A DNA stretch of 64,000 nucleotides from Eledone cirrhosa (taxonomy: Eukaryota): contig OZ024742.1 in assembly GCA_964016885.1 (NCBI GenBank), positions 43,834,001-43,898,000 on the forward strand, read 5' to 3'. The position numbers were made by a program, and so were the translations under genes. Below, piece by piece: positions 5,949-56,554 of this stretch. Below the pieces are notes generated by a model. The model was not told the origin of the DNA and searched no databases. It saw only the letters and a list, made by a program, of their open reading frames with translations. The number at the start of each line of letters is the position of its first letter. Position 1 is the stretch's first letter.

Positions 5949-8716
5949 CCTCAGGAGAAAAATATGGAAGCTAAAGGACCCCATAACCAGAAATAAATTT
6001 CAAAGCATATTACTTGACGCTTTCGACAGTAAGGAAGAGCAATTAGAGTCGTATAATATAGAGGAACAGTGGGAATTCCTGAGAGCAAACCTGCTGACGG
6101 CGGCAGACGAAGTCTGTGGCTGGAGCAGGCCTGTAGGTAGGAGGAGAGTAACATGGTGGTGGAACAGTAAGGTGGAGGAGTCAATTAAGGCCAAAAAGCA
6201 GGCTTGGAAAGTATGGCGGGATGGGGAAGTAGAGAAGACTATCAAGTGGCCAGGAGGAAGCTAGGAGACAAGTGTACTTCGCAAGAAGGGAAGCAGAGGA
6301 AAGAAAGTTCAAGCATGTTCTACAACGTGAGGACCAAAAACGTGAGGTGTTCAGGATTGCCAGGCAATGTGTCAAGGAAAACCGTGATATTGTCGGGGAG
6401 AAGTGTGTACTTAACGATGATGGCATACTTGCCATCACCGACGCTGATAAGAAGGTAGCTTGGAAGTGTCACTACGAAAGGCTTCTAAATGAGGAGAACA
6501 AATGGGAGAAAGACAGTCTCCCCCAGATCGATCCAATAGAGGGACCAGCAGTGTTAGTTGAAGGTAGTATAATAAGTAAGGCAATCAAAGATATGAAGAC
6601 GGGTAAGGCGGCTGGGCCTTCGGAAATAGTTGCTGAGATGCTGAAGGCATCTGGTTCGGTGGGACACACCATGGTCACCCGGATAGTTAACCAAGTCGTA
6701 CAGAATGGGGTTGTTCCGAAGGAATGGCGTAGCAGCATCATCGTTAACTGCTATAAGGGAAAAGGAGATGCCCTAGATAGGAGTAACTATAGAGGCATTA
6801 AATTAACCGACCAGGTCATGAAGGTCACGGAAAAAGTAATAGCGCAACTAATCAGAGAGAGAATTGATCTAGATGAAATGCAGTTCGGGTTTGTGTCAGG
6901 CAAAAGTACCACAGACGCTCTTTTCATTGTACGACAACTACAGGAGAAGTACCTAGCTAAAAGTAAACCCCTATACTTAGCTTTCGTCGACTTGGAGAAA
7001 GCCTTCGACAGAGTCCCCCGTTCCATTATCTGGTGGTCTCTTAGAAAACTAGGTGTTGACGAATGGCTTGTGAGAGCTATACAAGCCATGTATAAAGAAA
7101 CAGTCAGTAAGGTTAGAATTAACAACGAATATAGTGAAGAGTTTAGCGTAAAAGTTGGTGTCCATCAGGGCTCTGTTCTTAGCCCCCTACTATTTATTAT
7201 TGCCCTTCAGGCTATAACAGAGGAGTTCAAGACCGGTTGCCCATGGGAACTCCTATACGCAGATGATCTAACGCTCATAGCTGAATCAATGACCGAACTA
7301 GAGAAGAAATTCCAAACATGGAAGCACGGCCTAGAATCAAAAGGCCTTAAAATTAACCTGGCTAAGATTAAAGTTCTAGTTTGTAGGAAAGAAAATAAGG
7401 CGGCGGTCCCATCTGGGAAATGGCCATGCTCAGTGTGTAGGAAAGGCGTAGGTAGAAACTCCATTTTATGTCCCAAATGCAAAGTATGGGTGCATAAAAG
7501 ATGTAGTGGGATCACAGGTAAGCTAACTAAGAACATAGATTTTACATGTGGCCGGTGCTCTGGTGCAATAAGTAGCAGCAAGTGCCCACAAAATACTAGC
7601 TCCTTCAACTGCGCAGAGGGTTCTATAGAAATAGTGGACAGTTTCCGTTACCTGGGTGACAAAATCAGCAGTGGGGGAGGGTGCTCTGAAAGTACAGTAG
7701 CTAGAGTCAGAACTGGATGGAAAAAGTTCAGAGAGCTTATACCACTATTAGCCGCTAGAGGGTTCTCCCTAAAAATGAAAGGCAGGTTATACGATGCCTG
7801 CATACGAACAGCAATGCTGCATGGCAGTGAGACCTGGGCATTGTGTGCAGAGGATATACGCAGACTAGAGAGGAACGAAGCTTGCATGCTCCGCTGGATG
7901 TGCAATAGTAATATACGTGAACGGCAAAGCATAAACGAACTAAGGAAAAAATTAGAAATAAGAGGGATCAGATGTTGTTTACTCGAGAGAAGGCTACGTT
8001 GTACGGTCACGTGATGCGCATGAAAGACGACAGCTGTATAACAAAGTGCAGGGCAATAAAGATAGACGGTAGCCACGGAGTACGCAGACCCAGAAAAACA
8101 TGGGACGAGCTGATAAATTCCGACCTCACACGCTTACACCTCTCCAAGACAATGTCACTGGACCGAGACCTTTGGCGGTACTCAGTAATAGAGAAGACCC
8201 GCCTTACCTAAATACAAAGTAAAAACCTACTACAGTCAGTAGGCATCTCTATCAAAACACCGCCCCGTCCCACCACCTCCACCCCATCCACACCGCCCCT
8301 TTCAATGTACAGTTATGTTGGTCCCACAACATCCAGGCCGAAACAAATGAGATCGTGTAGGTGTCACGACAAAAAACACACAGTCCACGCTGTAAATGTG
8401 GCCGTGTAGGCAACACGGTAAAAACCTCCCAGCCCACACTGTAAATGTGGTTGGTGTTAGGAAGGGCATCCAGCTGTAGAAAACCCGCCAGACAGTCCAC
8501 GCTGTAATGTGGCCGTGTAGGCAACACGGTAAAAACCTCCCAGCCCCACACTGTAAATGTGGTTGGTGTTAGGAAGGGCATCCAACTGTAGAAAACCCGC
8601 CAGACAGTCCTATGCGAGCAAGACAACCACTCTTGCCTCAAGTGGGAAAACCCCCGTCCAAACCCATGCAAGCGTGGAACACGGACGCTAAACCTGATGA
8701 TGATGATGATGATGAT
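5949..8716 (+). mobile_element. RTE-clade LINE, subfamily A, 5'-truncated (begins just after the APE domain), (GAT)n tail
   Basis: RT motifs NYRGIKL, QFGF, FVDLEKAFDRV, GVHQGSVLSP, LLYADD; RTE-type C-terminus (LHGSETW, RRLRxYGHVMRM, RPRKTW); ~490-nt 3'UTR ending in (GAT)n; (TA)n on both sides. Confidence 0.95.
5950..8211 (+). pseudogene. RTE reverse transcriptase ORF with internal C4HC3 finger, broken by single-base frameshifts
   Basis: Upstream frame LRRKIWKLKDP..VTWWWNSKVEESIKAKK joins ORF 6272..8014 and ORF 7972..8211 through 1-nt shifts near 6225, 6258 and 8001. Confidence 0.9.
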
Positions 8717-13240: not shown

Positions 13241-14639
13241 TCATCATCATCATCATCATCAACGTTTAACGTCCGTGTTCCACGCTTGCATGGGTTTGGA
13301 CGGGGGTAGTCCCACTTGAGGCAAGAGTGATTGTCTTGCTCGCATAGGACTGTCTGGCAGGTTTTCTACAGTTGGATGCCCTTCCTAACACCAACCACAT
13401 TTACAGTGTGGGTCTGGGAGGTTTTTACCGTGTTGCCTACACAGCCACATTACAGCGTGGACTGTGTGTTTTTTTGTCGTGACACCTACACGATCTCATT
13501 TGTTTCGGCCTCGATGGCGCGGCACCAACATAACTTTACATAGAACGGGGTGGTGGTGGGACGGGGTGTATTTTGTTAGAGATGCCTACTGGCTGGAGTA
13601 GGTTTTACTATATATTTAGGTAAGGCGGGTCTTCTCTGTTACTGAGTACCGCCAAAGGTCTCGGTCAGTGACATTGTCTTGGAGAGGTGTAAGTGTGTGA
13701 TGTCGGAGTTTATCAGCTCGTCCCAGGTTTTCTAGGTCTGCCTATTCCGTGACTACCGTCTATCTTTATTGCCCTGCACTTTGTTATACAGCTATCGACT
13801 TTCATGCGCATCACGTGTCCATACCAACGTAGCCTTCTCTCGAGTAAACATCTGATCCCTCTTATCTCTAATTTTTTCCTTAGTTCGTTTATGCTTTGCC
13901 GTTCACGTATATTACTGTTACACATCCAGCGGAGCATGCAAGCTTCGTTCCTCTCTAGTCTGCGTATATCCTCTGCACACAATGCCCAGGTCTCACTGCC
14001 ATGCAGCATTGCTGTTCGTATGCAGGCATCGTACAACCTGCCTTTCATTTTTAGTGAGAACCCTTTAGCAGCTAATAGTGGTATAAGCTCTCTGAACTTT
14101 TTCCAACCAGTTCTGACTCTAGCTACAGTACTTTCAGAGCACCCTCCCCCACTGCTGATTTTATCGCCCAGGTAACGGAAGCTGTCCACTATTTCTATAG
14201 AACCCTCTGCGCAATTGAAAGAGCTAGTAGTTTGTGGGCACTTGCTGCTACTTATTGCACCAGAGCACCGGCCACATGTAAAATCTATGTTCTTAGTTAG
14301 CTTACCTGTGATCCCACTACATCTTTTATGCACCCATACTTTGCATTTAGGACATAAAATGGAGTTTCTACCTACGCCTTTCCTACACACCGAGCACGAC
14401 CATTTCCCAGAAGGGACCGCCGCCTTGTTTTCTTTCCTACAAACTAGTACTTTGGTCTTAGCCAGGTTAATTTTAAGTCCTTTTGACTCTAGGCCGTGCT
14501 TCCATGTTTGGAATTTCTTCTCTAGCTCGGCCATTGATTCGCTATGAGTGTCAGGTCGTCTGCGTATAGGAGTTCCCATGGGCAGCCTGTCTTGAACTCC
14601 TCTGTTATAGCCTGAAGGGCAATAATAAATAGTAGTGGG
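13241..14639 (-). mobile_element. RTE-clade LINE, subfamily A, 3' part (runs into assembly gap)
   Basis: ORF 13713..14579 is nearly identical in protein to the copy at 5949; same 3'UTR; (CAT)n tail on the + strand at 13241-13260. Confidence 0.95.
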
Positions 14640-14839
14640 NNNNNNNNNNNNNNNNNNNNNNNNNNNNNNNNNNNNNNNNNNNNNNNNNNNNNNNNNNNNN
14701 NNNNNNNNNNNNNNNNNNNNNNNNNNNNNNNNNNNNNNNNNNNNNNNNNNNNNNNNNNNNNNNNNNNNNNNNNNNNNNNNNNNNNNNNNNNNNNNNNNNN
14801 NNNNNNNNNNNNNNNNNNNNNNNNNNNNNNNNNNNNNNN
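14640..14839. other. Assembly gap (200 N)
   Basis: Run of N. Confidence 1.
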
Positions 14840-18098
<3,259 letters not shown>

Positions 18099-40010: not shown

Positions 40011-43000
40011 ATAACAACAGCAACAACAACGACAACAACAGTGTGAACCACTCCTTGATTCATCAACAATGGCCGATCTACTAAATGAAACTATTGACCC
40101 CCCAGTAGCCTCTGTCTCACAGCATGAAACGCCACATCCTTTCTCTGGCCCAGCAGTCCAATCATCACCACTGCCAACATCTCTGCCTACTACTACTACT
40201 ACTACTACAACATTTTTGTCTACTGCTATGTCAAGGAATTTACCTTCTAATACCAGAACAAGAACTCTCCCTCCCACAGTCCACAAAGATCGTCAAATCC
40301 TACCCAAACCATCATCTACACCTCTTACAACACCCACATACCCACCCACTCGAAACCCCATCATTTGCCGCTACTCTCTACGCTATAGAATATGTACGGA
40401 TAGTGGCTGCAAATTCACCCATTTACCTAGGACAAAACGATCTATCCCCACAAACAGCCACCACCATAATACATACTCTAATTTAACACCAACACAACAA
40501 CCACCAATAACTCAAACAAGGAATCCACAAATCTGCCGTTTTTCCCTGCGAGACAGATTGTGTTTAGACCGGGATTGTCCCTTTACCCATCTCCCGGGGA
40601 CCCGTCGGATAAATGAAAATAAAATTAAAAATAAAAGCAAAAACAAAAACCATAACCTACATAAAAATAACCACTACCACAGTCACCAACAGTCTTCTAA
40701 ACAGGAAACTTCTTCCTCTTTTTTTAGCCATAATGAATCTGGCAAAAGAACTGGAAAAAAACATTCGAGCTATCACCCAGCACCACCCTCCACTATCACC
40801 CCACTGCACAAATTCCCATTGCTGCCATTAACAAACAAACAAATTAACAACACACCAAAACAATTAAAACCATCCACTCTCGCCTCTACATTTTTGCTTA
40901 ACGCCCAAGGCATCAGCCCTTCCACCAATACTCAAAAATGGAAGATCAAATTCCTGGAGGACTGGATTGATGTCCATCCAAACCACATCCCTTTCTTCGT
41001 CCTCACTGAAACCCATCTCAGTAACCTCTACTTAGAAGCCGAGGTGAAAGTGAAAAATTTCAAAGCCATCCGTGCTGATCGCGCTGGCAGAAGAAAGGGC
41101 GGAACTGCCATTTATGTCCATAATTCTTTCTCAACAGAGGCTATGAACATATTCACTAATGGATACTGTGAGGCAGTCACTGTATTCAGTCAAACCAACA
41201 ACCTATTAGTAGTTGGGCTCTATAGGCCACCCCAAACGCCTGTACCATGCTTCAAGGAATGCCTCAACAGCATAAAGTGTTTCATCCAAGAGTGTCACCC
41301 TGACAACATCTTAATGATGGAGGACTTCAACCTCCCCGGAGTTGACTGGTCCACAAACACCCTGCCACCAGGTTCTTCTGCCTCAACCTCTGACAGGGAA
41401 GCTGTGGAATCGCTTCTTGACTTCATGGATGATTTCTTCCTATCCCAACTAGTGCTCGAACCAACGAGGTGCCACAAAAACGTCCTAGACTTAATTTTCA
41501 GCAATCACACTGACAATATCCACAATATTGCAGTGGAGAAAACTCTACTCTCTGATCATGACATGGTTCTCTGTGATCTGAGATTCCACCGTCCAATATA
41601 CAAACCCAATGTCATCTCTCCTGTCCATCCGTTTGACGCTATGGATTTCCACAATGCAAACTGGGAAGCGATCAGTCATGATCTTGCACATGTCGACTGG
41701 TCCTTCACGCACACTCATACACCCACTAACATCAAAAAGTCCTGGCAGACATTTGTGGACACTGTTTCAAACATATGTGCTAAACACACCCCATTAAGAA
41801 CTATAAACAAATCTAAGAGCAGAATCCCTAGAAATAGAAAAACGCTCATCAGAAAAATTAAGAGAACGAACAAAAAAATCAACAAGCTGAAATACTGTCA
41901 GCAGCAACACATCAACTTGACTGCCATTTCATCACTAGAGATTAAAAAACATAACCTCCAAAACAACATAATGTCCCTCATCAACAATCAGAGAAGAGCT
42001 GAAGAGGCCTGGGCCATTGAGAAGATCAAACTCAATCCCAAAGTGTTCTTTTCATTTGCAAAAAAACACAAAATCACTGGCTCTACTGTTGGCCCTCTAA
42101 TTGATGAAAATGGCACTCTTCAAGACAATGCTAAAACCATGGGTGAGATACTGCAGAAACAATACTGCTCTGTTTTCAGCAATCCTGATATGGCCGATCT
42201 GGGCTGTATCGGCGATGTTACTCCCCATTACACCTTATCGGACATAACGTTTGGCGCCCCTGATGTCTTGGCGGCAATAAAGGAAATCAAGCATAATTCA
42301 GCAGTAGGTCCCGATAGGTTCCCTGCTTGTGTCTTGAAGGCGTGTCAACACCAACTTGCTTCTCCTCTTGCCAATCTGTGGCGGAACTCACTGGATGCTG
42401 GATATGTGCCAGAAAACCTTCTATCCCAGTCTGTTGTCCCAGTTTTCAAAAAGGGAAACAAATCCCTTGCCGTGAATTACCGTCCAATCTCACTCACCTC
42501 TCATATCATTAAGGTATTTGAGCGAGTGGTGAGATCGCGAATGACCCACTTCCTTGAGAGTAACAATATGCTGAACTCCAACCAGCATGGATTCCGTAAT
42601 GGAAGGGATTGCCTGACGCAACTACTGCATCACTTTGATGACATTTTGAGAGCCTTGGGAGAGGGTTCCAACACTGATGTTATCTACCTTGATTTCAGCA
42701 AGGCCTTTGACAGGGTTGATCATAACATTCTACTGAGAAAGCTGTCCAATATTGGTGTCACTGGAAAGCTGCTGCAGTGGATCAAGAGCTTCCTGTCAAA
42801 CAGAACCCAACATGTTGTAGTTGAGGGAGTCAAATCAAGCCCAGCCAAAGTCAGTAGTGGAGTCCCACAAGGCACTGTGTTGGGCCCACTTCTCTTCATC
42901 ATCTATATTAATGACATCACTGACATCATCAAACACAGCAACATTAAAATTTTCGCTGATGATTCCAAGCTCCAAAAGGTCATCAATGGCGTGGATGACC

Positions 43001-43936
43001 GGATAAGCCTTCAGTCAGACCTACTGGCTGTTACCCAATGGGCAGAAAAGAACAACATGTTACTGAACGAAGACAAATTCGAACTGATCCACTTTGGAAA
43101 AGAGGATGCTCTGAAACTCCCGTACTCCCTTCCCTCCGGGGAAACTCTCGTGGCATCTAACAACATCAGAGACTTGGGAGTAACCGTGGACAGCAACATA
43201 AGCTGGACCACGCATATAAGCAGCAAAGTTGACATGGCCCGCAGAATGTGTTCCTGGATCCTCAGAACCTTCCAGTCGAGAGATTCCCGCACCATTATCC
43301 TTCTCTTCTCTACTTTCGGCCGACCACACCTTGAATACTGTTGTCCACTGTGGTCTCCCCACACGAAACAAAGTATCATGAAACTTGAAGCTCCTCAAAG
43401 GGCAATCACGAAAAAGATAGATGGCATGTCAGACCTTGACTACTGGGGTCGATTGGAAAACCTGAAACTTTACTCACTCCAACGTCGCCGTGAGCGTTAT
43501 ATTATCTGCATGATGTGGAAAATGTTCCATCATCACTGCCCAAATGATGTTGGCATCGCCTTCAAGATACACCCAAGGCTTGGGCCCCGTGCTATCCGTC
43601 CCATTCAAAAATCTAAATCGCAACTCATAACAACAATACGGCACAATTATTTCACCTCAATCGGCCCTGCTCTCTTCAACATCACACCAGGACACGTCAA
43701 AACAGAAACTGACCACACAAAATTCAAGAAGTCTTTGGACAAATTCCTCCAAGTAATCCCGGACAAACCACCCACACCCGGATATGTCTCCGCAAACAGT
43801 AATTCTCTTCTCGAATGGGCCATGGTGCCCAAATCCTGAATTGAAAGACTTCGCCAGGTGGTGCTATTAAGTTAGACATGGCCTGGGCCAATACTGGCCA
43901 AAACATTTCAAAGTTATTCAACGTTATTCAAAGTTA
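40011..43936 (+). mobile_element. Near-complete CR1/L2-group LINE with 10-bp tail repeat (TTCAAAGTTA)n
   Basis: Long ORF; 3'UTR hairpin GGCCA-ATAC-TGGCC; tail TTCAAAGTTA-TTCAACGTTA-TTCAAAGTTA; microsatellite on both sides. Confidence 0.95.
40069..43839 (+). CDS. LINE polyprotein: 2x CCCH zinc finger + APE endonuclease + reverse transcriptase (1256 aa)
   Basis: C-x8-C-x4-C-x3-H twice; APE motifs LNAQG, LTETHL, GGTAIYV, YRPP, (E)DFNLP, LDLIF, SDH; RT motifs [34 protein letters not shown]. Confidence 0.93.
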
Positions 43937-44097
43937 TATGTATGTATGTAATATATATATATATATATATCTATGTATGTAATATATATATATATATATG
44001 TATGTATGTAATATATATATATATGTATGTATGTATGTAATATATATATATATGTATGTATGTATGTAATATATTTATATATATATGTATGTATGTA

Positions 44098-49725: not shown

Positions 49726-51525
49726 TCATCATCATCATCAACGTTTAACGTCCGTGTACCCCGCTTGCATGGGTTTGGACGGGGGTTTTCCCACTTGAGG
49801 CAAGAGTGATTGTCTTGCTCGCATAGGACTGTCTGGCAGGTTTTCTACAGTTGGATGCCCTTCCTAACACCAACCATATTTACAGTGTGGGTCTGGGAGG
49901 TTTTTACCGTGTTGCCTACACAGCCACATTACAGCGTGGACTGTGTGTTTTTTTGTCGTGACACCTACACGATCTCATTTGTTTCGGCCTGGATGGTGTG
50001 GCACCAACATAACTTTACATAGAAGGGGGCGGTGTGGATGGGGTGGGGGTGGTGGGACGGGGGTGTATTTAGTTAGAGATGCCTACTGACTGTAGTAGGT
50101 TTTACTTTGTATTTAGGTAAGGCGGGTCTTCTCTATTACTGAGTACTGCCAAAGGTCTCAGTCCAGTGACATTGTCTTGGTGAGGTGTAAGTGTGTGAGG
50201 TCGGAGTTTATCAGCTGTCCCAGGTTTTTCTGGGTCTGCCTATTCCGTGGCTACCGTCTATCTTTATTGCCCTGCACTTTGTTATACAGCTATCGTCCTT
50301 CATGCGCATCACGTGACCATACCAATGTAGCCTTCTCTCTAGTAAACAACATCTGATTCCTCTTATTTCTAATTTTTTCCTTAGTTCGTTTATGCTTTGT
50401 CGTTCACGTATATTACTATTACACATCCAGCGGAGCATGCAAGCTTCGTTTCTCTCTAGTCTGCGTATATCCTCTGCACACAATGCCCAGGTCTCACTGC
50501 CATGCAACATTGCTGTTTTGTATGCAGGCATCGTACAGCCTGCCTTTCATTTTTAGGGAGAACCCTTTAGCGGCTAATAGTGGTATAAGCTCTCTGAACT
50601 TTTTCCACCCAGTTCTGACTCTAGCTACTGTACTTTCAGAGCACCCTCCCCCACTGCTGATTTTGTCACCCAGGTAACGGAAGCTGTCCACTATTTCTAT
50701 AGAACCCTCTGCGCAGTTGAAAGAGCTAGTATTTTGTGGGCACTTGCTGCTACTTATTGCCCCAGAACACCGACCACATGTAAAATCTATGTTCTTAGTT
50801 AGCTTACCTGTGATCCCACTACATCTTTTATGCACCCAAACTTTGCATATGGGACACAAAATGGAATTTCTACCTACGCCTTTCCTACACTCTGCGCATG
50901 GCCACTTCCCGGAGGGGACCGCCGCCTTATTTTCTTTCTTACAAACTAGAACTTTAGTCTTAGCCAGGTTAATTTTAAGGCCTTTTGATTCTAGGCCGTG
51001 CTTCCATGTTTGGAATTTCTTCTCTAGCTCGGCCATTGATTCAGCTATGAGCGTTAGATCATCTGCGTATAGGAGTTACCATGGGCAGCCGGTCTTGAAC
51101 TCCACTGTTATAGCCTGGAGGGCAATAATAAATAGTAGGGGGCTAAGAACAGAGCCCTGATGAACACCAACTTTTACACTAAAATCTTCACTATATTCGT
51201 TGTTAATTCTAACCTTGCCGACTGTTTCTTTATACATGGCTTGTATAGCTCTCACAAGCCATTCATCAACACCTAGTTTTCTAAGAGCCCACCAGATAAT
51301 GGAACGGGGGACTCTGTCGAAGGCCTTCTCCAAGTCGACGAAAGCTAAGTATAGGGGTTTACTTTTAGCTAGGTACTTCTCCTGTAGTTGTCGTACAATG
51401 AAAAGAGCGTCTGTGATACTTTTTCCTGACACAAACCCGAACTGCATTTCATCTAGATCAATTCGCTCTCTGATTAGTTGCGCTATTACTTTTTCCGTGA
51501 CCTTCATGACCTGGTCGATTAATTT
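49726..51525 (-). mobile_element. RTE-clade LINE, subfamily A, 5'-truncated
   Basis: ORF pieces 51076..51507, 50494..51036 and 50211..50531 closely match copy 5949; same 3'UTR and tail. Confidence 0.95.
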
Positions 51526-51834
51526 ATATATATTATATATATATATTATATTATATATATATTATTTTTATATTATATTATATATATATTTTTTTTATAT
51601 TATATTATATTATATTATATTATATATATATTATATATATATTATATTATATATATATTATATTATATATATATTATATATATATATTATATTATATATA
51701 TATTATATATATATATATTATATATATATTATATATATATTATATATATATATATTATATATATATATATATTATATTATATATATATTATATATATATT
51801 ATATTATATATATATTATATATATATTATATATA

Positions 51835-53311
51835 TCATCATCATCATCATCATTTTACGTCCGCTTTTCCCTGCTTGCAAGGGTGGGACGGGTCTTATTC
51901 AGCACAGCATCTCTCCACTCGTCACGGTCCCTCGTCATCTCCACCGTGAGCTTCAATGATCTGAGGTCTGTTCTCACCACCTCCGCCCATGTTTTTCGTG
52001 GTCTACCTCTACCACGTCTTCCTTCAACTGGCATTTCCTGGCACTTCTTCACCCATCGGTCATCCTCCATGCGCATCACATGTCCATACCACCTCAGTCT
52101 CCTCTCCCGTACACTACATTCTATCCCTCTCAGACACAGTTTCTCTCTCAACACATTTATGCTGGGTCGTTCACGCACATTTACACTGCACATCCAACGG
52201 AGCATGCTTGCCTCATTTCTCTCCAGCCGTCGCATATCTTCTGCGGTAGCTGCCCATGTCTCACTACCATGCAGCATCGCGCTCCTCACACAGGCATCAT
52301 ACAACCGGCCTTTCGTACGCAGGGAGAAACCCTTCTTCGTCAACAGAGGAAGCAGCTCCCTAAACTTCTTCCAACCCGTCCTTATTCTAGATACTATGGC
52401 CTCGGAACACCCTGCTCCCATGCTAATCTGATCTCCTAGGTACCGGAAGCTATCCACCACTTCTATAGCGCCCTCTCGCATTTGAAAAATGTGTCTATCA
52501 GTGCGACTTCTACTGTCTAATTTCCCTGTACATCTACTGCATACATATTTCTCCCTACCTGTTAGTTTGCCTGCTATCCTGCTACATCTCTTGTGTACCC
52601 AGGACCTGCATTGTGTGCATTTTATAGAATTTATGCCAGTTCCTTTTCTGCATATCGAACATGGCCATTTCCCTGACGGAATCAGGGTTTTGTCCTCTTT
52701 TCTACTCATCAACACTTTTGTCTTAGCTAGATTTACTCTCAGTCCTCTTGCTTCCAACTGCTGTTTCCATAGCCGGAATTTATTCTCTAGCTCCTCTACT
52801 GATTCTGCCATAAGAGCCAGATCGTCAGCATAGAGAAGTTCCCATGGACAGCCAGTCTTAAACTCCTCTGTTATGGCTTGGAGGACTATAATGAACAAGA
52901 GCGGGCTGAGGACCGAACCCTGATGTACTCCTACTTGTATCTGGAATTCCTCACTAAACTCCATTCCTACCCTGACTTTACTGAGAGTACCTCTGTACAA
53001 AGTTTGCACTGTCCTTACAAGCCATTCCTCAACACCCAGCTTCCTTAGGGACCACCAGATGACAGATCGGGGTACCCTATCAAAGGCCTTCTCTAGGTCA
53101 ACAAAGGCTAAGTATAGTGGCTTATTCTTCTCTAAGAACCTCTCTTGCATTTGTCTCACCAAGAAGAGGGCATCCGTTGTACTCTTCCCAGGCACAAAAC
53201 CAAACTGCATCTCATCTAGTTTGACCCTTTCTCTAATTAGTTGTGCTAAAATCCTTTCTGCCACTTTCATAACCTGATCTATCAGTTTTATACCCCTATA
53301 ATTGCTCCTCT
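51835..53311 (-). mobile_element. RTE-clade LINE, subfamily B, 5'-truncated, uninterrupted ORF, essentially no 3'UTR
   Basis: ORF 51855..53270 (471 aa) has RT motifs, PHD-type finger and RTE C-terminus; the stop codon abuts the (ATG)n tail. Confidence 0.95.
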
Positions 53312-54470: not shown

Positions 54471-56153
54471 ATCATCATCATCATCACCGTTTTACGTCCG
54501 TTCTTCCACGCTAGCATGGGTTAGACGGGTTGTCCTGTTGAGGGCAGTGTCTGGTCGGCTGACCATGCCTTGCTCATACAGGAACTGATCTGGCTTGATT
54601 TCTACAGCTGGATGCCCTTCCTAACACCAACCTCATTTACAGTGAGTGCTGGGTTCTTTTTCGTGGCACCTACACGTCCACTTTACAGTGTGGGCTGGGT
54701 GCTTTTTTGCCGTGGCACCTCCACGACCACCTTGCGGTGGGGGCATATTGTTTATATGCTTCAGCATGAACCCATGGGAGGTCGGGTACCCTGTATTACT
54801 GCGTGACGCCAGAAGTCACGGTCGTGTGTCATTGTCTTTTGAGAGGTGTAGTTGGGTAAGGTCGGCTTTTATCACCTCATCCCAAGTCATCTTGGGTCTC
54901 CCCACTCCGCGGTTTCCATCAACTTGTAGTGCTCTGCACCTTTTTATGCAGCTGTCATCCTTCATACGCATCACATGTCCATACCAGCGTAACCTCCTCT
55001 CCTGCACGCAGCATTTGATTCCTCTTATGCTCAGTCTCTCTCTCAGTTCCTTTATGCTTTGTCGTTCACGTATATTACCGTTACACATCCATCGGAGCAT
55101 GCAGGCTTCGTTTCTCTCTAATCTACGTAAGTCTTCCACCTTCAGCGCCCAGGTCTCACTACCATGCAACATCGCTGTTCGGATACACGCATCATACAGT
55201 CTGCCTTTCATTCTGAGGGAGAAGCCTTTTGCAGCTAGCAGTGGTAGTAGTTCCTTAAACTTCTTCCATCCCGTTCTTACCCTAGTTATTGTACTTTCTG
55301 AGCACCCACCTCCGTTGCTAATTCGGTCACCTAGGTAGCAGAAGCTGTCTACTGTTTCTCCAGGGCCCTCCCAGAGATTGGTGGTACTTGTTTCCTGTGG
55401 CTGTTTGCTTGCTGTTTCAGCACAGCTGCTGCATGTGAATCCTACATTCTTAATTAAGCTTCCTGAGATCCCGCTACATCTCTTGTGTACCCATTGTTTG
55501 CATTTGGGGCAGAGAATGGAGTTCCTACCTACACCTTTCCTACATACTGAGCAAGGCCATTTCCCTGAGGGGATCTGGGTTCTGTTTTCTCGTCTACTTA
55601 CAAGGACCTTAGTCTTTGTCATGTTGACTTTGAGACCCTTTCTCTCTAGTCCCTGCTTCCAGGTTTTGAATTTATTCTCTAGTTCTACCATAGATTCAGC
55701 TATGAGTGCGAGGTCATCAGCATACAGGAGTTCCCATGGACATCCGGTCTTAAACTCCTCCGTTATTGCTTGCAGGACTATGATGAACAGGAGAGGGCTA
55801 AGAACAGAGCCCTGGTGGACCCCAACCTGTACGCTAAATTCCTCGCTATACTCATTGCTCATCCTAACTTTGCTGACTGCTCCCCTATACATGGCTTGTA
55901 CCGCTTTCACAAGCCATTCATCTACTCCTAGTTTTCTAAGAGCCCACCAGATTACTGCACGTGGAACTCTGTCAAAGGCTTTCTCAAGGTCGACAAATGC
56001 CAAGTAGAGTGGCTTACTTTTAGCTAGGTACTTTTCCTGTAATTGCCTCACAAGGAAGAGGGCATCAGTGGTGCCTCTCCCTGGTACAAACCCAAATTGC
56101 ATCTCGTCTATATTCACCCGGTCCCCAATCAGCTGTGCTATAACTCTTTCTGT
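54471..56153 (-). mobile_element. RTE-clade LINE, subfamily C, 5'-truncated
   Basis: ORF 54816..56117 (433 aa) with RT motifs and PHD-type finger; distinct 3'UTR that still shares TTAGGAAGGGCATCCAGCTGTAGAA; (GAT)n tail. Confidence 0.95.
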
Positions 56154-56554
56154 ATATATATTATATATATTATATATAACTCTTCTCTATATATATATTA
56201 TATATATTATATATATATTATATTATATATATTATATATATATTATATTATATATATATTATATACATATATATATATTATATACATATATATATATTAT
56301 ATATATATATTATATATATTATATATATATATATTATATATAGTACTTAAAACAGTAACTGGAAGTGCGCTCATATGAGAATATAAGCAAGCACTGTGAA
56401 TTGAATTTTCTGAAAGGAAAAGTGGCAGTGACTTCGAAGTTTCAACTTAGTTGCTCCACCTGGCCGCCCCAGATAAATACGCGAACATAGAAAAGTGAAA
56501 CATTAACAGAATGAGCACTCACTACATGTGGTTTTATTTTCCAAAGAAAAAGGC

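Follow-up and report, generated by a model that had tools for sequence, protein, structure and literature searches.

It has long been asked how LINEs translate their second open reading frame (ORF2), and the elements studied in most depth point to reinitiation. In its passages on retroelements, a 2016 recoding review names frameshifting for HeT-A, and also TART and L1 initiation (PMC5009743). L1 ORF2 expression is described there as independent of its AUG (PMC5009743), and (re)initiation close to the ORF1 stop is thought to operate in L1 and is reported for SART1 in the corresponding sections of three papers (PMC5009743, PMC10275272, PMC1965478). For the Dictyostelium elements TRE5-A and TRE3-A, the figure legend of a review states that a -1 frameshift is required for ORF2 translation (PMC5911963); -1 frameshifting is thus not new to non-LTR elements. 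The viral part of the recoding review gives U_UUU_UUA as the shift site of HIV, where the bases 3' of UUA matter, and G_GAU_UUU as that of pea enation mosaic virus; the umbravirus site is followed by a structure that engages in long-distance pairing (PMC5009743).

The window, i.e. the whole stretch of 64,000 nucleotides of Eledone cirrhosa DNA that we analysed, contains at 40013..43936 (+ strand, as for all features below) a LINE copy that lacks its 5' end and belongs to a young two-ORF family with many copies, named here family A. It is surrounded by a (TA)n microsatellite, and from 40013 onward its identity with other copies is ~99%. We take family A to belong to the CR1 group, from its motifs and from its repeat tail; a 3' tail of short tandem repeats without poly(A) is a feature of this group. 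The 3' part of ORF1 (40013..40831) comprises the end of a poly-Q tract, a low-complexity linker, two CCCH-type zinc fingers and a Phe-Leu (FL) pair followed by an amphipathic helix. Finger 1 (40366..40422, C-x7-C-x4-C-x3-H) was read from the sequence and can be aligned to the CCCH fingers that relatives carry, the Pfam CCCH matches being weak; finger 2 (40534..40590) was also read from the sequence. The T-run (40719..40726 with its closing A) counts seven T at 40719-40725, and lies, as the first-pass annotation had described, inside a long open frame (40015-43839). This single frame carries the APE endonuclease domain (40888..41570; Pfam PF14529, E 2.3e-12, and PF03372) and the reverse transcriptase (RT) domain with its FADD motif (42454..43185; PF00078, E 5.7e-31). 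No Met codon occurs between the T-run and the APE start, again as first described: the first ATG of the APE-RT frame is at 41143, 81 codons into the APE domain. The element closes with a short 3' UTR (43840..43936), in which stem-loops are predicted and which ends, without poly(A), in three repeats of 10 nt (43907-43936).

The copy starts inside the poly-Q tract and so is devoid of the 5' UTR and of the true ORF1 start. Its GDFN motif in the APE domain carries a G-to-E change (A at 41321) absent from the other copies compared, one of five ORF2 changes relative to the copy L189. Because of these missing parts and of the GDFN change, the copy is probably inactive. The extra T was said to hard-wire an ORF1-ORF2 fusion; this holds for the DNA as assembled, where the seventh T breaks the ORF1 frame, but hardly for a functional element, the copy being truncated, mutated at GDFN and probably inactive. 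The seventh T is an indel of the T-run, either a real slippage or an assembly error. We regard the truncated seven-T copy of the window as incidental, its extra T being no family trait.

This is clear from the other copies. Exact-pattern searches of the 3.0-Gb host genome gave 580 junctions with six T, 6 with seven (the window copy included), 4 with five and 1 with three, the five-T and three-T patterns having slightly different flanks. Among the 40 best DNA matches, all 29 non-self loci have one T fewer than the window copy, and the contigs of four out of four public runs show the one-base-shorter form, as the prediction of six T in paralogous copies required. The five other seven-T copies do not have the substitutions of the window copy at 40813, 41029, 41321 and 41767 and differ among themselves, so that they look like independent indels. 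A seven-T subfamily with a single ORF was rejected on the same grounds: only six copies, on different backgrounds. Six T being the family state, family A is a two-ORF element with ORF2 in the -1 frame. In six-T copies this frame opens at a stop codon (40698..40700) 19 nt 5' of the Phe codon of tcU UUU UUA, and then overlaps ORF1 for 108 nt after it. The dual-coding overlap (40727..40831) encodes the helix and tail of ORF1 in the 0 frame, down to the ORF1 stop TAA at 40829-40831, and a stop-free ORF2 linker in the -1 frame.

In relatives ~90% identical, an in-frame 12-nt deletion in the overlap leaves both frames open. A sister subfamily (~79% nucleotide identity) has U_UUU_UUA in three copies out of four, the other being deleted there. 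Half of 18 diverged loci of the same genome have a readable junction, and the heptamer is exact in six of these and altered in three, which are decayed. A second in-frame heptamer, A_AAA_AAC at 40756-40762, did not appear in the first description of the locus. It is not conserved (G_AAA_AAC in the sister-subfamily loci L192-L194 and L199), and we rejected it as main shift site since the sister subfamily has lost it.

Full-length copies reach ~400 nt of ORF1 plus the 5' UTR beyond the 5' end of the window copy. Their ORF1 of 386 aa has a Myb/SANT-like N-terminus (a weak match, E 5.6e-5, below the curated cutoff), the poly-Q tract, the two CCCH-type fingers and the FL-helix; the ATG at 40069, which starts ~400 nt too far 3', was rejected as ORF1 start. 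The N-terminal segment is found in 51 of the 64 loci with enough upstream sequence, some of which may repeat one place. Family A has the characters of a LINE: at least 580 dispersed copies with common 3' ends and variable 5' truncation, and an ORF2 in which APE endonuclease (PF14529, PF03372) precedes RT (PF00078).

Several features of these copies are noted in passing. A ~260-nt 5' UTR segment is in tandem duplicate in the full-length copy L190 (L190:1-508), and is a single unit in L195, L197 and L198, where the upstream pieces differ. The Myb/SANT-like N-terminus and poly-Q (L190:509-770) stand where relatives carry a PHD finger, which suggests a domain swap. Two diverged copies (L078, L079) are truncated a few bases upstream of the T-run and keep the heptamer; truncation just 5' of the T-run may be favoured. 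The three loci L061-L063 (G000:C1 149.86-149.93 Mb) are fragments of one diverged subfamily, almost identical and spaced by ~32 kb, and probably form a tandem segmental duplication. The 3' tail abuts (TA)n in the window copy (43907-43960) and in eight of the nine others inspected (L189, L190, L192-L197, L200), and (TG)n in the remaining one; family A may prefer or seed AT microsatellites, in a genome that is very rich in microsatellites. The window also holds fragments of another LINE family (6233-8014, 50494-51561, 51855-53309, 54816-56186, and 13713-14843 by translation) with a PHD finger directly after the RT domain, presumably RTE-like according to its motifs.

The same junction was found well beyond family A. 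A metagenome scan of 506 candidate stretches retained 12 loci, 11 of which reach the junction and represent seven lineages. In all 11, ORF1 ends with [D/S/T]FL plus a helix and ORF2 is in the -1 frame; the heptamer is G_GAU_UUU in seven and U_UUU_UUA in four, and in L096 a -1-frame stop directly adjoins it. Those long enough show PHD-like and CCCH fingers upstream. L094:2-3013 and L095:3-2750 have ORF1s open for more than 900 codons, in which the N-terminal region is acidic and two PHD-like fingers precede the CCCH fingers. A second family of the host genome (family B, 29% APE identity to family A) was found with the ORF1 protein of a relative, without regard to the junction: 31 matches correspond to 30 loci, and 26 of these have the junction AGT TTT TTA GGC, the four others being unmatched by the search expression. 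In the family B copies that were translated, the -1 frame opens two codons before the site and no ATG precedes the APE domain. Tails of short tandem repeats accompany these elements, with units of 10 nt in family A, 9 nt in L086, L087, L094 and L095, and 5 nt in family B.

At the protein level, an HMM of the C-terminal half of ORF1 matches 2,324 clusters (50% identity) at E <= 0.001, known mostly from protein. The first-pass annotation had taken the overlapping frame for the natural C-terminus of ORF1, and these proteins bear it out: FL and the helix close 133 of the 146 scorable tails among the best 150 clusters, for a shuffled mean of 26 FL, a tally made by a first-match heuristic and including the clusters of the query lineages themselves. 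Eight of the 13 representatives without FL have, read by eye, DF followed by another residue, which is what a heptamer ending at Phe would permit. A word-based search for ORF1 homologues and APE-alignment scans of viral and prokaryotic contigs gave no matches, and atlas matches bore automatic names only.

We then compared nine lineages, family A included, with APE identities of 29-73%. The FL and its slippery site, whose conservation in related families had been proposed as a check, are kept in all: a heptamer of the X_XXY_YYZ type lies in the correct frame at the homologous site of ORF1 in nine lineages out of nine, U_UUU_UUA in five and G_GAU_UUU in four, and is conserved beyond the constraint of the protein. 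ORF2 is always in the -1 frame and open from the site; it has no ATG before the APE domain in seven lineages, and has such ATGs in two (15 nt 5' of the APE motif in L092; 138 and 57 nt in L093/L094). From the site to the ORF1 stop the -1 frame contains no stop in 642 codons, for ~49 expected; as controls, the 1635 codons upstream hold 126 stops, and the 633 codons read in the +1 frame hold 47. The stop-free overlap after the FL site spans 108-267 nt, and in six lineages the -1 frame opens just 4-19 nt 5' of the Phe codon. With synonymous codons resampled for the same ORF1 peptides the joint chance of this open frame is ~4e-11, and that of T_TTT in all nine is ~7e-8 given codon usage; both assume independence and overstate the evidence, as the lineages are related, G_GAU_UUU was accepted after it had been seen, and the APE tree is poorly resolved (116 columns, no well-supported branch). 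To control for relatedness, codons were compared in the APE domain: none of 33 invariant APE columns keeps one codon across eight lineages, APE Phe codons switch between TTT and TTC, and synonymous codons are saturated.

The simplest account of the frame that is open from the heptamer, of the fixed codons, of two heptamers at one position and of the missing AUGs is -1 ribosomal frameshifting. We hold it probable, at roughly four chances in five, that it yields an ORF1-ORF2 fusion in family A and its relatives; the proposal of such a fusion, initially made from the window copy, gains support at the level of the family and of the clade from copy counts, the conserved heptamer and the open -1 frame, all of them sequence evidence. 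A fraction of ribosomes would slip back by one base at U_UUU_UUA, or at G_GAU_UUU in some relatives. Those that do not slip would make an ORF1 protein ending in the amphipathic helix and a short tail, while the slipping ones would join the ORF1 zinc fingers to APE-RT through a linker of 56-100 residues. As for Gag and Gag-Pol, the proportion of fusion would be low and fixed. Several observations nevertheless count against it: no conserved 3' stimulator was found, and there are the ATGs of the ORF2 frame in two lineages, the heptamers altered in a third of the readable decayed copies, the resemblance of the site to a splice acceptor, and two database ORF2 proteins (P0001 and P0002, 36% identity) that begin with a Met just before APE, these starts being those of a gene caller.

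The database proteins P0001 and P0002 would fit better with an ORF2 made as a separate protein, through reinitiation after termination, or initiation at a non-AUG codon, close to the ORF1 stop, the T-run then reflecting a conserved Phe-Leu peptide. The relevant sections of two papers describe such a route for the LINEs that have been studied most (PMC5009743, PMC10275272); near-cognate codons exist in every overlap, and two of the nine lineages have ATGs in the ORF2 frame. However, reinitiation needs an open frame only near the ORF1 stop, and leaves unexplained why the -1 frame is stop-free over the whole 108-267 nt. It does not account either for the fixed TTT and the T preceding it, when other Phe codons vary freely, and the lineages have no start codon position in common. 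We thus consider this explanation unlikely, although it is the best placed of those competing with frameshifting.

Less likely still is that the TTTTTTAG-like site acts as a 3' splice acceptor, ORF2 being expressed from a spliced RNA with a start codon in an upstream exon. The base following the heptamer is G in all five U_UUU_UUA lineages, which makes up a pyrimidine tract plus TAG; a G-starting codon follows non-D xFL motifs in 87 of 110 representatives, against a background of 23%; and in the G_GAU_UUU lineages an AG stands six bases 3' of the heptamer. But the two groups differ in the ORF2 phase of their AG, and an acceptor would take C as well as T, when both free positions carry T in nine lineages out of nine (~6e-7 given codon usage). 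LINE enzymes preferentially copy their own mRNA, so that splicing should have left spliced retrocopies. None was found genome-wide: a single copy departs from T at the fourth base 5' of the presumed exon start, and it is a point mutant, unspliced upstream. No splice joint at the site appears in contigs, which drop rare forms, of three presumed RNA runs from another organism (~90% identity); one of the three reads through the junction unspliced. As for fused RNAs or copies produced by slippage of RNA polymerase or reverse transcriptase on the T-run and supplying the ORF2 protein, seven-T copies such as that of the window do exist, but this origin is the least credible of all since seven-T (6) and five-T (4) copies are similarly rare (~1% each), on different backgrounds and not amplified, and since the G_GAU_UUU lineages offer just four consecutive T.

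The HIV shift site is followed by a 3' stem-loop. A stimulatory stem-loop or pseudoknot 5-9 nt 3' of the site was not found in our lineages, apart from weak candidates in L094 and L095. Folding z-scores 3' of the site range from -1.32 to +0.78 in 12 loci, and the pseudoknot scan was unremarkable in eight of the ten cases. The hairpin downstream of the T-run in the window copy, presented as weak from the start, is weak indeed (z -0.42, 57 of 200 shuffles folding equally well); a local hairpin or pseudoknot stimulator, no better than shuffles or other windows, was rejected. Pairing of the post-slip region with the 3' end was examined in six elements and stands out only in L094 (p 0.004-0.014); it was not seen in family A (p 0.16-0.57), family B and L087. 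In family A it finds no support as stimulator: the sister subfamily disrupts a 9-bp helix, which shows no compensation or covariation. In L094, and weakly in L095, the post-slip region is predicted to pair with the last 70 nt, in L094 better than ~99% of the other windows tried. Because no 3' structure is conserved, the efficiency of the shift is probably low and set mainly by the heptamer and the next base, which is, as said, G in five U_UUU_UUA lineages out of five.

A broader proposal may be put forward tentatively, which we deem possible but rather doubtful: a very large clade of invertebrate LINEs, of the extent of the 2,324 ORF1 clusters, would produce a Gag-Pol-like fusion through two interchangeable heptamers, with no stimulator in cis on the RNA, the shift being set by the context of the heptamer or by the CCCH-finger ORF1 protein itself. 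If frameshifting is true, the enzyme would be extended at its N-terminus by the zinc fingers of ORF1 and made in a set proportion, like retroviral Gag-Pol. The question is directly testable, since it comes down to precise codons, at which synonymous changes should suppress the expression of ORF2. It also bears on annotation: in this LINE clade, single-ORF copies and ORF2 starts inside the APE domain would be artefacts.

Our search of the open-access literature met with no description of -1 frameshifting in CR1-group LINEs of animals. The word "frameshift" is absent from the main text of PMC13343379, PMC10294476 and PMC2881922, and the parts consulted of PMC1925062 and PMC5006619 hold nothing on frameshifting in this group. 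The closest elements by their structure are the CR1-group LINEs with a PHD ORF1 (Metcalfe and Casane 2014, PMC4120745) and CR1-Zenon, which, from the description in that article, share an APE-RT ORF2, the PHD finger found in the ORF1 of our relatives, a tandem-repeat tail and frequent 5' truncation. The main text of PMC4120745 contains neither "CCCH" nor "frameshift"; by description, an ORF1 with PHD, three CCCH fingers and FL-helix is not among the types listed in it, and family A further differs from these types by its Myb/SANT-like N-terminus and poly-Q instead of PHD.

By their expression strategy the nearest elements would be TRE5-A and TRE3-A, compared here through a review. They have two ORFs like family A, with APE and RT in ORF2, but they are amoebozoan elements that target tRNA genes, end in an oligo(A) tail and differ in their ORF1. 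A bicistronic LINE RNA is common to family A, mammalian L1 and silkworm SART1; what sets family A and its relatives apart is that their ORFs overlap by 108-267 nt after the slippery site. The gag-pol site of HIV-1 and that of pea enation mosaic virus RNA 2 have the same heptamers in the same X_XXY_YYZ register and fuse a structural protein to a polymerase; family A and its relatives depart from them in that no conserved 3' structure was found, and in that the host element is a LINE.
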